IMG/VR virus record: IMGVR_UViG_2778261450_000003
Location: 1 to 38,191 of that record
DNA length: 38,191 nt
Source of the DNA: a virus
Taxonomy: Duplodnaviria; Heunggongvirae; Uroviricota; Caudoviricetes
Direction: 5' to 3' (one strand)
The translations under genes and the position numbers were made by a program. The notes under the pieces were generated by a model. It saw only the letters and a list, made by a program, of their open reading frames with translations. It had not been told where the DNA came from and searched no databases. Positions 1 through 37,258 of the stretch are shown piece after piece (positions within the stretch are counted from its first letter, which is position 1; the number at the start of each line of letters is the position of its first letter).

Positions 1-573
1 TTACTTAGATATTATCCTTGATTCTTTCCGGGTGACATAAGTACAGTTTGAAGGAATTTCATCCATGATAAATGACATTGCCCCGATCTTGACATTATCT
101 CCAATTTTAAAACCAGAGCCCAGAATGAATGAGTGGGCGCCAATATCAACGTTATTGCCAATCGTTATTCTATCGTGTTCATTATCCGATTGACTACGAC
201 CAATGGTTGTATTTTGTCTGATAGTCAGATTTTCTCCAATGATTGCCGTACTGGTAACAACGATGCCCGTGTGATGGATAATTGTCAGACCCTTGCCAAC
301 GGTCAGCCCTAGACCAAGATCACAGCTGTATTCACTGAGTAATTTGCGGTTGATTTTCTTCGCTGCTTTTTTTGTATATTTCCCGCCATGGATAAACATT
401 TCATTTGCAAGTCTCCACCAGAAGATGTATTTTCTTGAGCGTGATCTCTTCTCTCTTAGTAGGCGATGAATTAAAAATCGATCGCGACGGATGACTTCAA
501 CTTTCCAGCATTCGAATAGATGTTTCGTATTACCAAATAATATAAAATAAAGAGCAAAAATATATTTAGTCAT
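1..573 (-). CDS. hexapeptide-repeat (left-handed beta-helix) acetyltransferase, serine/sugar O-acetyltransferase-like
   Basis: Complete 190-aa ORF (ATG 571-573, TAA 1-3); tandem hexapeptide motifs (IGENLTI, IGNNVDIG, IGDNVKIG); strongly AT-rich unlike the rest of the window. Confidence 0.6.
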   Translation of the reverse strand: MTKYIFALYFILFGNTKHLFECWKVEVIRRDRFLIHRLLREKRSRSRKYIFWWRLANEMFIHGGKYTKKAAKKINRKLLSEYSCDLGLGLTVGKGLTIIHHTGIVVTSTAIIGENLTIRQNTTIGRSQSDNEHDRITIGNNVDIGAHSFILGSGFKIGDNVKIGAMSFIMDEIPSNCTYVTRKESRIISK

Positions 574-771
574 ATAACTATCTTCTTTTTACCTACATTG
601 ATTCTTTGAAAATCGAATAGTGAAATGATAATTTCTTCTTATGAGTGGGCAAGGACGAGGTTTACATTTTTCCCCGTAGGATTTTCCACTCATATGTTAG
701 AAGATAGGGTGCCTTTACGACCTTACCTTAGCAACCGATTGACGGGGGATTGCTCCCCCGCCGCGGTTTCC

Positions 772-912
772 TTACTGTTTACACTGTAAGAACGCCGCAA
801 ACTCCGCTCCCCAAAAACTCATCCGTATCTCACACAGTGAACCGTGCAACATCCAGATGATGAGGATTGCCGTCACGCAGAACGTGATGGCTGTAAGCGA
901 TTTTTGCGACAT
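772..912 (-). CDS. Hok/Gef-family type I toxin (small membrane peptide)
   Basis: 46-aa ORF MSQKSLTAITFCVTAILIIWMLHGSLCEIRMSFWGAEFAAFLQCKQ with AAGGAG RBS 8 nt upstream; hydrophobic N-terminal TM, SLCEIR and E-x-AAF-x-x-C-K motifs as remembered for Hok/HokA; below the ORF-track size cutoff. Confidence 0.6.
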   Translation of the reverse strand: MSQKSLTAITFCVTAILIIWMLHGSLCEIRMSFWGAEFAAFLQCKQ

Positions 913-1175
913 AGCGCTTGCTCCTTTTTCGGGGAGGCGCTAACCTATCACTTGTCTAGGGTAGATGGTTAGGGCCTCGGTTAAACAAAAATGTTTTCCG
1001 GGGCCTTTCCACATCCGGCCTTCAGGTATTCCCTCCAGCCATCAGCCGAAAGGCACCCGCGCGAATTCTAGCCTGGTTTTTTCCCTTGTTTCAATCCGTT
1101 GAGGTTTGTCGGTCTTCTGATGTAAAATTCCCGACCTTATACATTATTCAGTCACGCATTTGATACATGCTTCCG

Positions 1176-1198
1176 CCGGCGTTCGCGCCGGTTTTTTT
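1176..1198 (+). terminator. intrinsic terminator (CCGGCG-UUCG-CGCCGG hairpin plus T7), possible 3' end of a Sok-like antisense RNA
   Basis: 6-bp GC stem with UUCG tetraloop followed by TTTTTTT on the + strand, about 260 nt upstream of the hok-like ORF in the mRNA sense. Confidence 0.4.
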
Positions 1199-1671
1199 CG
1201 CTCTGTTGCTGCGTAGATCGTCATGTGCGATCGAGGCGCGTTATTGATCCTTTTTTCAGTTTAATTTTGACTCTCAATTTTACGCAGGCCGCGCCGCGTC
1301 TGGCTTCGTTGTTTGACGATTTTTTGTCGCGATCCTTTTTGATCGTTTTTCGTCTCGCGCAAAGCATGAAAACTCTTTTAATATCATGCGGTTTCATTGC
1401 TCCTGCCATTTATGAGATCGTAAAAAACTCGCTGAAAACTGCAAAAAATTTCAAAGCGTGAAATTTCAGATCTTCGCTTTTCCCTCAGTCGCTGCGCGGG
1501 CTGGCGGTCATTTTTGCACGGCAGAAAACTGAAAAAGTGTTTCGACACAAAACCCGCGGGTTGGAGGGGGTAGCGCGGTTTACGTCACCTCACGCTTTAC
1601 GTCACACCGTTTACGCGGTGTGCGCATACAGCGCCAGAATGGCACGCAGAACGCATTAATCAGGTGGCAGA

Positions 1672-25737: not shown

Positions 25738-26052
25738 TTATTCTGGAAAAAACGCCTGAATATTCTTTTTCACCTGCTGCATAGGGTGGGCGCTGGCTGT
25801 TGCTGGTTGCGCCTGTTTTTCAGGCTGCACTGGCAGCGATGTCATCCGTATTTCGTCTTCTGACCATTCTGCCAGCGAATACGCCAGTGCGGGGGCACGT
25901 TTTATGAGTGCCAGTCCAGCCAGAAAGGCCGCGCGTTGTGCGCGGCTGCGTTCCGAGGCTGGCAGGCTGTCGAGGTAATTGCACGCCTCCTGTTCACTCT
26001 TGACGGCGGCTGGCTTCAGATAGAAACTTATCCGTCTGGTTGGTGACGTCAT
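25738..26052 (-). CDS. parR: ParR/StbB-like centromere-binding partition protein
   Basis: 104 aa from the ATG at 26052 with AAGGAG RBS, 4 nt after the parM stop; DSLPASERSRAQRAAFLAGLAL closely resembles the R1 ParR region DSIPQGERSRLNRAALTAGLAL (from memory). Confidence 0.7.
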   Translation of the reverse strand: MTSPTRRISFYLKPAAVKSEQEACNYLDSLPASERSRAQRAAFLAGLALIKRAPALAYSLAEWSEDEIRMTSLPVQPEKQAQPATASAHPMQQVKKNIQAFFPE

Positions 26053-26056
26053 TGGT

Positions 26057-27016
26057 TTACTCCTTGTCCATTGCGTACAGCCCATTAACCAGAGCAAACT
26101 GTGGCACCCCGTCCGCGATGAAAGTCGCATTAACTCCGCAGGCTTCGCGGATAGCGGGTGCCACAATATCAGCCCCTCCACCGACAACCATCACCCGTCC
26201 GTACCCCGAAAAACCAGCCAGCGCACGGATCACACGTTGTTTCAGTGTTTCTTCCTTTTCATGAATAACCGCCATCAGGTTGGCGTAATGCGCGTCATTG
26301 TGAATGTGCTGGCGCAGCCAGGCTTCATCGTGGCGATGTTCGATAATGGTATTGGCGATGTGGTGACTGGTGCGCATACCGTTAGTGGCCATCACCGACA
26401 GTACAGCATCGGCCATCAGAGAAACGCCTACGTGTGGATCGCAAAACACCTGGCTGATACCTGCCAGTTGTCCCTGAACCTTTGCCACATCCAGCGTGGT
26501 TCCGCCTAAATCAACAATAAGCAGGGATTCAAACGGACTCATGTCAGCCAGCGCCTTAAAGCCTGCCGGAATGGATTCAGGCATAACCCGCACGTTACGG
26601 ATAGTGAATGCTTTGCCGTTCTGGTACTCCACCGGGCGCATGACGTTCGCTTTTTTTCGGTTGATGTTTGCCATGTCCGGCTGTGCGTTTGTGTCGAAAT
26701 ATTCGCTCAGTGGCAGGGTGACAACCACATCCACTTCCTGTGGCGTGATGCCTGATTTGACCAGTGCGTGATGAATGGCAATGACATTCACATCACTGTA
26801 CTGGTATTGCGTGTCGGTCGTCTGGACAAAGCGATCGCTGACCGGATCAAAACCATAGCGCACGCTATCAAGCATGTAGTTCGCGGGCTGCATGCCACCG
26901 AACGGCGCAGACCATTCCGACTTGAAGCTGTTCGGGCTGATGGCGTTGCGGCGTTCGCTGTTCTCAGTCCATGCCAGCTTGATGTTGGTTGAGCCGTCGT
27001 CGATGTAAATTTTCAT
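26057..27016 (-). CDS. parM: ParM/StbA actin-like plasmid segregation ATPase
   Basis: 319-aa ORF with AAGGAA RBS; N-terminus MKIYIDDGSTNIKLAW...ISPNSFK...YQYSDVNVIAIHHAL matches remembered R1 ParM (MLVFIDDGSTNIKLQW...ISPNSFK...WQYSDVNVVAVHHAL). Confidence 0.85.
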   Translation of the reverse strand: MKIYIDDGSTNIKLAWTENSERRNAISPNSFKSEWSAPFGGMQPANYMLDSVRYGFDPVSDRFVQTTDTQYQYSDVNVIAIHHALVKSGITPQEVDVVVTLPLSEYFDTNAQPDMANINRKKANVMRPVEYQNGKAFTIRNVRVMPESIPAGFKALADMSPFESLLIVDLGGTTLDVAKVQGQLAGISQVFCDPHVGVSLMADAVLSVMATNGMRTSHHIANTIIEHRHDEAWLRQHIHNDAHYANLMAVIHEKEETLKQRVIRALAGFSGYGRVMVVGGGADIVAPAIREACGVNATFIADGVPQFALVNGLYAMDKE

Positions 27017-30590: not shown

Positions 30591-30957
30591 GATATGTGGC
30601 CTCTTGTAGTAAGTTGTGAAAACTCACCATCCAGAGCTGCGAAACTGTGGGTGGCGAGACGTACGAGGTTCGCAGTACCGGCTACAAGAGATCCCGGCCC
30701 GACCGAAGTCGGCCCCGTACGCCCCGCCATAATTCTGACGCGAAAAAAACGTGGCAATACAGTACACACAAAAAAACCGCTGGCGCGGTTGTGCGCTCTT
30801 GTAGTCAGCAGGCTGCGAAACCCGGCACCCGTTTTATGAGGTGCAGCGAAAATGTAACCTGACTGATTGCGGCATGGCAAGCGGTTTTTTTGTGAGAACG
30901 GCATACTAAAAAATCCTGATACTGCTCCGGCCAGCGGTTTGCACTGGCCGGGTGTCA

Positions 30958-31788
30958 TTACTTCACGGGAACGAACGGAACAGCGGTGTTACTGGTCATG
31001 TATTGCGGCAGCGTGCCGTTCCATTTGTTGATCGCTTCCAGCTCCATAACGCCGGGATTCTGGCGCAGAGCTTCGCCGCGTAAACGAATGGCGTCGGCTT
31101 CAGCCTGGGCTTTTGTGCGAATGGCATCGGCCTGTCCGGCAGCTTCTGCGCGCAACATGTTGGCTTCTGCTTCGCGTTGCTTGACTTCCTGTTCGCGTTG
31201 CAGGGTTTTCTGGTTTGCCGTGACTTTGGCGTTAATGCTGTCGATAACGGTTGGCGGATATTCCGGTTTACCGACATAAGAGAGGCTCATGACCTGAATA
31301 CCGATGGGGGTCATCTCTTCCTGAATATCTTTAAGTGCTGAATCCAGCAGTTCAGACTTACCACCGTCGATAAACTTATCGGTGGTCATTTTGCTGGCCA
31401 GTCGGTTGAGTGCATCGGCGATCTTCTGGCGCAGGTCAGTGTCGGTAATGTCGTCCACGCCTTTGCGGTAGGTCTGAAACACCGTGGTAACTTTGGATGG
31501 ATCAACTTTGTAGGCCACGCCGATGTGATAGCCGATGGTTGTGCCGTCACTCATCTGGAAGTTGAACGGCTCATCGTAAGTCTTCATTTGTTTGAAGGTC
31601 GGGAAGATGTAAACCTCTGTATTCCAGCCTGTCCAGTAGCGGCCAACGCCAACCACTTCACCGACGCCTTTGTCGTCGCCCAGTTTGTTGACTTTGATGC
31701 CCACATTACCTGGCTCAACGCGATCGCAACCAACCAGCAGGATGGCGGCAAAAAGCGGGAGAATCTGAAAGAGTTTGAATTTCTTCAT
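30958..31788 (-). CDS. SPFH/band-7 (stomatin-prohibitin-like) lipoprotein
   Basis: 276-aa ORF; N-terminal signal with lipobox LLVGC; central SPFH-like region and Ala/Glu/Arg-rich coiled-coil C-terminus typical of band-7 proteins. Confidence 0.7.
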   Translation of the reverse strand: MKKFKLFQILPLFAAILLVGCDRVEPGNVGIKVNKLGDDKGVGEVVGVGRYWTGWNTEVYIFPTFKQMKTYDEPFNFQMSDGTTIGYHIGVAYKVDPSKVTTVFQTYRKGVDDITDTDLRQKIADALNRLASKMTTDKFIDGGKSELLDSALKDIQEEMTPIGIQVMSLSYVGKPEYPPTVIDSINAKVTANQKTLQREQEVKQREAEANMLRAEAAGQADAIRTKAQAEADAIRLRGEALRQNPGVMELEAINKWNGTLPQYMTSNTAVPFVPVK

Positions 31789-36990: not shown

Positions 36991-37258
36991 GTCTGTAAAA
37001 TGTTGAATTGGCGCAGTATGTTACGGTACTGCGCCTATTGAGATCCTCCCAGCAAGGGGAAGGTCAAGAAATTAATAAACCAGGCGAGTAAAAGTCCGTA
37101 AAGATTAAAAAATTGGCTCAATTTGCATCAGGATTAGACATTTATCTCTTTGTTTTCCTGAAGTTAAGTTGCGGGTGCTAAGTTAAATCAAGATGCCTGA
37201 AAATCGGCACCGGGGTGAGGAATTACCTCCCGCATCTATAAAAAGGAGTTAACAAAAG

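Follow-up and report, generated by a model that had tools for sequence, protein, structure and literature searches.

A probable hok/sok-type toxin–antitoxin cassette carried as accessory cargo by a P2-like Escherichia coli prophage

Results

The region studied here is, with high probability, a type I toxin–antitoxin cassette of the hok/sok type, which an integrated P2-like Escherichia coli prophage carries as accessory cargo close to its tail genes and which would act by the mechanism proposed below. The window, i.e. the whole stretch of DNA that was analysed, has a length of 38,191 nucleotides (IMG/VR record IMGVR_UViG_2778261450_000003, positions 1 to 38,191). An initial annotation had described a hok-like type I toxin locus here, and the core of that reading was right, based on the protein models, a match of the leader to an RNA family model (below its gathering score), the fold-back of the mRNA and the literature on the identical peptide. 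Family membership, RNA architecture, conservation, mobility and prophage location were established in this analysis.

The hok coding sequence is found at 912..772 on the minus strand and encodes a peptide of 46 amino acids, MSQKSLTAITFCVTAILIIWMLHGSLCEIRMSFWGAEFAAFLQCKQ. An AGGAG can be read about 8 nt 5' of the ATG, the N-terminal segment of the product is hydrophobic, and the motifs SLCEIR and AAFLQCK are present. The Pfam model HOK_GEF (PF01848) matched the peptide with 29.9 bits (E 4.1e-7), residues 7–44 aligning to model positions 5–42 of 42, which is above the curated gathering cutoff of 22 bits. PHROG 251 matched with 80.6 bits (E 1.3e-22), and in NCBIfam the HokA and Hok family models both matched sub-threshold. 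The RefSeq protein WP_000078916.1 ('Hok/Gef family protein'), which occurs in several E. coli genomes and on one plasmid, is identical to the peptide. The 46-aa ORF with a strong ribosome binding site (RBS) and Hok/Gef hallmarks, as initially annotated, was thereby confirmed at these coordinates, and as the alignment to Hok models scored above the cutoff, the lack of significant similarity that had been named as counter-evidence did not occur. PHROG 251 belongs to the 'moron' category and is labelled 'MokW-like host killing', a label that is a name only. The literature search found no paper mentioning WP_000078916.1 or the 'MokW-like' label.

Among 24 relatives, L26-C27-E28 and C44 were invariant or nearly so. 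These residues align with HokA and HokC, and the conserved positions agree with the list of a Hok survey. The peptide is kept in E. coli, Shigella, Salmonella and Klebsiella, and the version in the window is the commonest one among the copies. Copies that encode the identical protein vary synonymously, and codons 34–44 were free of any nucleotide variation, synonymous changes included, in the copies compared. Judged from its sequence, we consider the ORF at 912..772 (minus strand) to be a real member of the Hok/Gef toxin family; the toxicity of the identical peptide is reported in the literature.

Next to the toxin gene, the elements of a structured hok mRNA were identified. A sigma-70-like promoter is predicted at 1094..1065 on the minus strand (TTGAAA, an 18-nt spacer and TAGAAT; 10 of 12 positions in the promoter scan) and would put the transcription start at G1058. 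The same version of the promoter is also present in the IncI1 plasmid copies, and the P88 and Stx phage copies differ upstream. We aligned the locus across eight phage, plasmid and chromosome contexts, including phage P88, a Citrobacter Xuanwuvirus, an Stx phage, IncI1 and IncF plasmids and another E. coli prophage. The homology starts with GGGTGCC at 1058 and stops with GGCACCC(TA) at about 705, and outside this unit the flanks are either unrelated or belong to two promoter versions. From these limits a full-length hok mRNA of about 352 nt is predicted at 1058..707 on the minus strand, the 3' end being approximate and possibly reaching to about 699. As the limits of homology coincide with the predicted transcript ends, the mobile unit appears to be the ~352-nt hok transcript itself. 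The terminator scan gave no intrinsic terminator for the hok mRNA on the minus strand, and its 3' end was therefore derived from the end of homology only.

The Rfam model RF01794 ('sok') gave a match along the whole model (positions 1–157; E 1.6e-8) to 1058..899 on the minus strand, with 46.3 bits, which is below the gathering score of 59; relatives scored 31–44 bits. As a control, the same model was run on K-12, where it matched the hokC leader in the mRNA sense with 118 bits, with the annotated sokC inside the match on the opposite strand. Based on this control, the match in the window corresponds to the hok leader, with +1 of the mRNA at 1058.

The 352-nt hok RNA had a minimum free energy (MFE) of −157 kcal/mol in comparison to −114 ± 5.5 kcal/mol for shuffled sequences (z −7.8). 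A tac-like element at the 5' end, GGGUGCCUUUCGGCU (1058..1044, minus strand), is predicted to pair in the MFE structure with an fbi-like fold-back element at the 3' end, GUCGUAAAGGCACCC (721..707, minus strand). In the MFE and centroid structures nt 1–15 form 15 pairs with nt ~337–352, with one base bulged on the 3' side. Such a fold-back of the 5' and 3' ends is the defining trait of hok mRNAs, and the corresponding elements in R1 are known as tac and fbi. Nucleotides 1–9 were invariant and GGCAYCC was kept in all of the 33 unique hok mRNAs that were compared. In the RNAalifold consensus of the same 33 mRNAs the 5' element is paired differently: columns 1–14 pair with columns 47–60, the internal sequence GGAAAGGCCCC, so that a ucb-like partner, GUGGAAAGGCCCC, is predicted at 1012..999 (minus strand). 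The consensus fold thus points to an alternative partner that would compete with the 3' element for pairing with the 5' end. All the alternative pairs are invariant, so covariation speaks neither for nor against them and the support comes from conservation and energy.

Two further hairpins were predicted in the mRNA. The hok Shine–Dalgarno sequence would be sequestered in a hairpin at 940..913 (minus strand; GCGCCUCC...GGAGCAAGCGC) that is found in the MFE and centroid structures and partly in the consensus fold, in which the hok start region pairs with codons ~38–44. A stable hairpin just 3' of the hok stop codon, CGGGGGAGCAAUCCCCCG (760..743, minus strand), carries compensatory changes in two stem pairs (GC to AU in four sequences; AU to CG or GC in two).

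On the plus strand, a Sok-like antisense RNA of about 60 nt is predicted at 954–1014, with a single-stranded 5' tail, a hairpin at 971–1007 and a short U tail. Its ends were mapped from the annotated K-12 sokC (59 nt) via the shared Rfam leader model and pairwise alignment. Three different versions of the sequence occur, and each retains the hairpin. Indels shift the register of the upper stem between variants, and for this reason folds of the single sequences and a test of strand asymmetry were used instead of column-wise covariation counts. In all 15 variants the hairpin was more stable on the plus strand than on the mRNA strand, by 5–14 kcal/mol. This advantage is due to G·U pairs and speaks for selection acting on the antisense RNA. 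Only three U's come after the hairpin. The Sok-like antisense RNA of the initial annotation is thus supported as a prediction, by the mapping from sokC and by the strand-specific hairpin. A sok promoter, which had been suggested as something to look for, is predicted from the position of the sokC-mapped start at 918–946 on the plus strand (TTGCTC, a 17-nt spacer and TAACCT). On the complementary strand neither hexamer varies among the 33 sequences; however, the hexamers are weak in comparison to the consensus and were missed by the promoter scan, as they fall below its threshold.

A mok frame overlapping hok had likewise been proposed as a check. In the window, no ORF overlapping the hok start was found in any of the three frames with ATG, GTG or TTG as start codon. 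The mok-like frame is interrupted by a TGA at mRNA positions 35–37 and by a TAG at positions 101–103. Two short leader ORFs are present on the minus strand, ATG45..TAG119 (1014..940; 24 codons, in frame with hok) and GTG47..TAG103 (1012..956; 18 codons), neither of which overlaps hok. The TAG at positions 117–119, which separates the ATG45 ORF from hok, is invariant. Both are putative remnants of a mok-like frame. In 65 of the 93 related loci (33 of the 53 distinct leaders) an overlapping ORF of 60–87 codons starts from ATG17, ATG45 or GTG47. The copy on pETEC-2265 is an example of a relative whose mok-like ORF is intact. It is missing in the other 28 loci, which have 20 distinct leader variants and include the window, P88, an Stx phage and IncI1 plasmids. 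In R1, translation of hok depends on translation of mok. With the overlapping frame missing, hok in the window might therefore be poorly translated or untranslated, and the translatability of this copy is uncertain. The UAG at positions 117–119 directly adjoins the base of the RBS-sequestering hairpin, so that a ribosome terminating there could still open this hairpin.

A hairpin with a UUCG loop that resembles an intrinsic terminator (GCCGGCG-TTCG-CGCCGG followed by seven T's) was found by the terminator scan at 1175–1199 on the plus strand. The initial annotation had reported such a terminator in the presumed leader of hok, as would be expected for Sok. The hairpin exists, but it lies at least 117 nt upstream of the hok transcription start, beyond the hok promoter, and thus neither within the leader (1058..913) nor as the homologous terminator of Sok. 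In 13 of 15 IMG/VR contigs it is located 112 nt from the 5' end of the hok mRNA, and in the other two the 5'-end marker was unmatched. It is kept in E. coli SC418 and STEC313. A sister prophage in which a YafO cargo replaces hok is without it, and so are the copies of the module in P88, Stx phages and plasmids. As these modules are without it, the hairpin cannot belong to the core of the system; from the sequences compared, its association with the cassette appears to be restricted to this prophage type and it stands outside the hok/sok core. Most economically it could be a backstop or insulator against rightward transcription running antisense into the tail operon.

A promoter-like site that is divergent from the hok promoter is present at 1099–1128 on the plus strand (TTGAGG, an 18-nt spacer and TAAAAT; 9 of 12 in the scan), and was kept in 13 of 15 sister contigs. 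Speculatively, this site and the UUCG terminator would together give a transcript of about 65 nt at ~1135–1199 (plus strand). Rfam gave no match for this candidate RNA, and its fold is weak (z −2.0). We also considered it as a second regulator of hok and rejected this, since its best duplex with the hok mRNA (−25.3 kcal/mol) was equalled by 28% of shuffled sequences.

The window represents E. coli chromosome with a P2-like prophage, as seen from the genes for gpA, terminase, portal, tape measure, baseplate and integrase, and glsA is found to the right. One copy of a 28-bp direct repeat, CCAGCAAGGGGAAGGTCAAGAAATTAAT, is at 37049–37076 of the window. In a near-identical genome the other copy adjoins copA, 688 bp to the left of window position 1. 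This att repeat brackets the prophage, so that hok and a low-GC acetyltransferase gene lie inside the att-bounded element. The locus had initially been placed beside the left end of the prophage; it is instead about 1.5 kb inside, in the cargo region. The question of whether it is host DNA, phage cargo or plasmid backbone is thereby answered in favour of phage cargo, in the form of a mobile module that is also present in other phages and plasmids.

At the position of hok a sister prophage carries genes for a YafO-family toxin and a nuclease, and the order hok–spacer–baseplate gene recurs elsewhere on the chromosome, where the cargo to its left differs. Of 5426 complete E. coli genomes, 1683 contain the module, as do 198 phage records and 35 plasmids, and 310 IMG/VR stretches encode a relative. 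Stx phages carry a copy of the same module adjoining lom. A scan of genome contigs gave six loci. Three of them are in assemblies labelled Planococcaceae MAG, Vagococcus and Xanthomonas pisi, with near-identical enterobacterial sequence, and these copies are likely contamination and not a sign of a wide host range. PADLOC gave no match for Hok or its neighbours.

Discussion

The layout described above is that of R1 hok/mok/sok (parB) and K-12 hokC/mokC/sokC. These systems have in common with the window a small membrane toxin and a long structured leader, as well as the 5'–3' fold-back, the alternative pairing of the 5' end, a cis-antisense RNA of about 60 nt encoded within the leader, and the overlap of the sok promoter with the RBS region of hok. 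The peptide in the window is shorter, with 46 amino acids in comparison to 50–52 in R1 and hokC, and is 28% identical to HokC and 43% to HokA. Its leader matched the Rfam model with 46 bits, below the gathering cutoff, in comparison to 118 bits for hokC, and the mok overlap of the R1/hokC type is missing. The mok-like frame of the relatives starts at AUG45 or GUG47, where the segment complementary to Sok has its 3' end, whereas in hokC the start of mokC adjoins the 5' end of sokC. HokA of K-12 (NCBIfam NF007290) scored best among the named equivalogs and is the nearest of the K-12 paralogues. Orthology to HokA was rejected, as NF007290 gave 34 bits against an equivalog cutoff of 89.

The peptide is identical, residue for residue, to 72_1621, which belongs together with 72_1589 to cluster 72 in the catalogue of Hok homologs of Escalera-Maurer et al. 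(bioRxiv 10.1101/2025.08.07.668861). In that work hok was about four-fold enriched in prophages and not enriched near defence systems; taken together with the PADLOC result, a role in defence is unsupported. The authors found 42 of 45 tested homologs to be toxic, and 72_1621 is not one of the three named non-toxic exceptions. According to their Table S2 it is in a high-abundance cluster and was cloned as LRP137 for an arabinose-induced toxicity assay. As that study dealt with the coding sequence only and left Mok, Sok and the mRNA structure unanalysed, the transcript architecture, the position of Sok and the status of mok are additional here, although unsurprising. A prophage-borne hok/sok cassette is likewise known from the Stx2 prophage Sp5. 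Takada et al. (2021, PMC8621323) showed that hokW-sokW is a working type I toxin–antitoxin system there which, once the prophage is induced, assists in lysis and in the release of phage. With 51 amino acids (MKQQKAM...VDYESEK), HokW represents another paralogue. The locus in the window was rejected as a copy of hokW-sokW, since the primer-derived termini of HokW and the entry 35_712 put HokW in cluster 35 together with HokD, and the peptide of the window is in cluster 72.

In the proposed mechanism, the sigma-70 promoter (1094..1065, minus strand) would give an hok mRNA of ~352 nt (1058..~707). At full length this mRNA would be translationally inert, with its 5' and 3' ends paired and the hok RBS held in a local hairpin. 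The Sok-like RNA (~954–1014, plus strand) would be transcribed from a promoter overlapping the hok RBS region and would be fully complementary to leader nt ~45–105, thus covering the leader starts AUG45 and GUG47. By analogy with R1 hok/sok, the fold-back element would be lost by slow trimming from the 3' end, leaving the 5' end to pair with its internal partner and the leader to open. When Sok is present it would bind the open leader, and cleavage of the duplex by RNase III would prevent production of the toxin. Once the short-lived Sok is gone, ribosomes would translate the leader and then hok, and the 46-aa Hok would insert in the inner membrane and kill or arrest the cell. For the copy in the window we infer the transcript ends, the expression and instability of Sok, the 3' processing and the translatability of hok. 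Likely roles of the cassette are stabilisation of the prophage or plasmid, or help with phage exclusion or lysis.

The interrupted leader frame also allows a less favourable interpretation, in which the locus is a silenced or attenuated relic. The RNA elements and the Hok ORF would then be intact, the mok-like frame would stop short of hok, Hok would never be translated and the locus would hitch-hike with the prophage. The two stops at mRNA positions 35–37 and 101–103, the lack of any ORF overlapping the hok start, the retention of such an ORF in 65 of 93 loci and the requirement of mok translation for hok translation that is reported for R1 would all agree with this. We nevertheless consider it unlikely, since the 28 of 93 loci without the overlapping ORF have 20 distinct leader variants, P88, Stx phage and IncI1 plasmid copies among them, and the overlap-free state is therefore widespread and persistent and not a one-off lesion. 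Also the Hok peptide is identical to the commonest version, the promoter and the RBS are intact, as are the fold-back elements and the hairpin of Sok, and a ribosome terminating at the stop of the 24-codon ORF could open the RBS hairpin at whose foot it would stand. A variant of the hok/sok reading, to which we give a small but appreciable chance, is that the cluster 72 lineage may work without an overlapping mok. Either AUG45..UAG119 or GUG47..UAG103 would then gate hok, and the ~65-nt RNA at ~1135–1199 would be a separate sRNA. As the start of the leader ORF would lie under the 3' part of Sok and its stop at the foot of the RBS-hiding hairpin, this would be a non-overlapping variant of the mok–hok coupling in which unmasking depends on termination.

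It seems highly improbable that the UUCG hairpin at 1175–1199 terminates Sok, which would make Sok a transcript of about 245 nt across the hok promoter. The strand would be the right one and the hairpin comes after the predicted sok promoter, some read-through is plausible with three U's only after the Sok hairpin, and in this prophage type the UUCG hairpin is always found with hok and is gone where hok is replaced. However, the 59-nt sokC maps to ~954–1014 of the window, the terminator homologous to that of sokC is the conserved hairpin at 971–1007 that is favoured on the plus strand, and the module in P88-like phages, Stx phages and plasmids stops at about 1082, without the UUCG hairpin. As the latter also lies beyond the hok promoter and outside the leader, it was rejected as the Sok terminator or a part of the leader. 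A chance open frame between genes, encoding nothing functional, might be suspected from a length of only 46 codons, a size that gene finders often skip. This has a negligible probability and is already refuted by the matches in three independent family libraries, the conservation of the protein in E. coli, Shigella, Salmonella and Klebsiella, synonymous variation among identical-protein copies, and the conserved RNA architecture around it; in addition, the identical peptide 72_1621 was reported in a toxicity assay, outside the named non-toxic exceptions.

Taken as a hok/sok-type system, the locus is an ordinary and already catalogued cassette that is carried as prophage cargo, and only small details of it are new. 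The enrichment of hok in prophages and the toxicity assay of the identical peptide are already published, and the value of the present analysis is mainly a correct annotation. The small conserved promoter–terminator unit that adjoins the cassette is an unexplained lead for specialists. About 30% of the sampled copies, the window included, are without a mok frame that reaches into hok, and it may be asked by what route, if any, hok is translated in them. For the family, the finding adds a further prophage type to those that carry cluster 72, a very common mobile hok/sok module, in their accessory-gene slot.

Results and discussion

Comparison of the window with the sister prophage of E. coli EC42405 (L096) revealed that the hok end of the prophage differs in gene content between the two. 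In positions 1-2500 of L096 a YafO-family toxin, a hypothetical protein and an ATP-dependent nuclease replace hok (912..772, minus strand) and the acetyltransferase gene of the window, and homology picks up again at about window position 1224. As judged from the sequences, the hok end of the prophage is a site at which cargo genes are exchanged. The acetyltransferase, a hexapeptide-repeat protein encoded at 1-573 (minus strand) inside the prophage and directly downstream of hok, has a low GC content (36-41%) and is probably a further cargo gene. It resembles serine O-acetyltransferase/EpsC (NCBIfam) and PHROG 2154, and is possibly involved in surface-polysaccharide modification.

Within hok, codons 34-44 (window 781-813; WGAEFAAFLQC) showed no nucleotide variation at all, including synonymous changes, in 33 distinct relatives, and in the consensus fold they form base pairs with the start region of hok. 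Together, this invariance and pairing argue for a constraint at the RNA level on top of the coding constraint. Divergent from the hok promoter, a promoter-like site (TTGAGG, an 18-nt spacer and TAAAAT) is followed by a UUCG terminator (1099-1199, plus strand), and the two outline a possible sRNA of about 65 nt. Among the 15 IMG/VR contigs of the same prophage type, the terminator was found in all and the promoter-like site was kept in 13. The candidate sRNA had no match in Rfam, and no evident target for it was detected in the hok mRNA.

The adjoining stretch of about 540 bp (1200-1736) has no annotated gene. Only 50 of the 5426 E. coli genomes contained it, and no phage record did. Short repeats were detected in it, namely three copies of GATCCTTTTT and two copies of CGSTTTACGTCAC, the latter 17 nt apart at 1576-1605. 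The stretch may have a role in regulation of the adjacent tail/baseplate operon.

Near-identical (72-98%) copies of the enterobacterial hok locus were also found in assemblies labelled as a Planococcaceae MAG, Vagococcus sp. and Xanthomonas pisi (L009, L010 and L013), which most likely reflect assembly contamination and not the true host range. Dozens of predicted IMG/VR viral contigs of about 35 kb (L018 and many others) terminate exactly 3 nt past the hok stop codon. The programs that call prophage boundaries evidently cut at hok, and hok is therefore routinely the final gene in predictions of P88-like prophages.

The prophage is bracketed by a 28-bp att direct repeat, CCAGCAAGGGGAAGGTCAAGAAATTAAT, at window 37049-37076 and at 4734-4761 of L001, a near-identical genome that extends further to the left; this left copy lies outside the window, 688 bp to the left of where it starts. 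The repeat is located in the copA upstream region, and we take it to be similar to the CueR operator. If this likeness is true, copA and glsA flank the prophage, which duplicates a segment of the copA control region.

Rfam matches above the gathering score were obtained at 30647-30844 (minus strand) for C4 antisense RNA (81 bits) and isrK (67 bits). The two matches adjoin each other inside one ORF with a weak Ash-family match, and the region adjoins an SPFH/Band 7 gene (30958-31788). The region has the appearance of an immunity RNA module of the P1/P7 type, here carried by a P2-like prophage. Two further genes of this integrated prophage (25738-27016, minus strand) code for ParM (StbA), an actin-like protein for segregation, and for a partner similar to StbB/ParR. 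Together with hok/sok, this pair matches the two classical stability functions of plasmid R1, which hints at a plasmid-like stage or phage-plasmid ancestry of the prophage.
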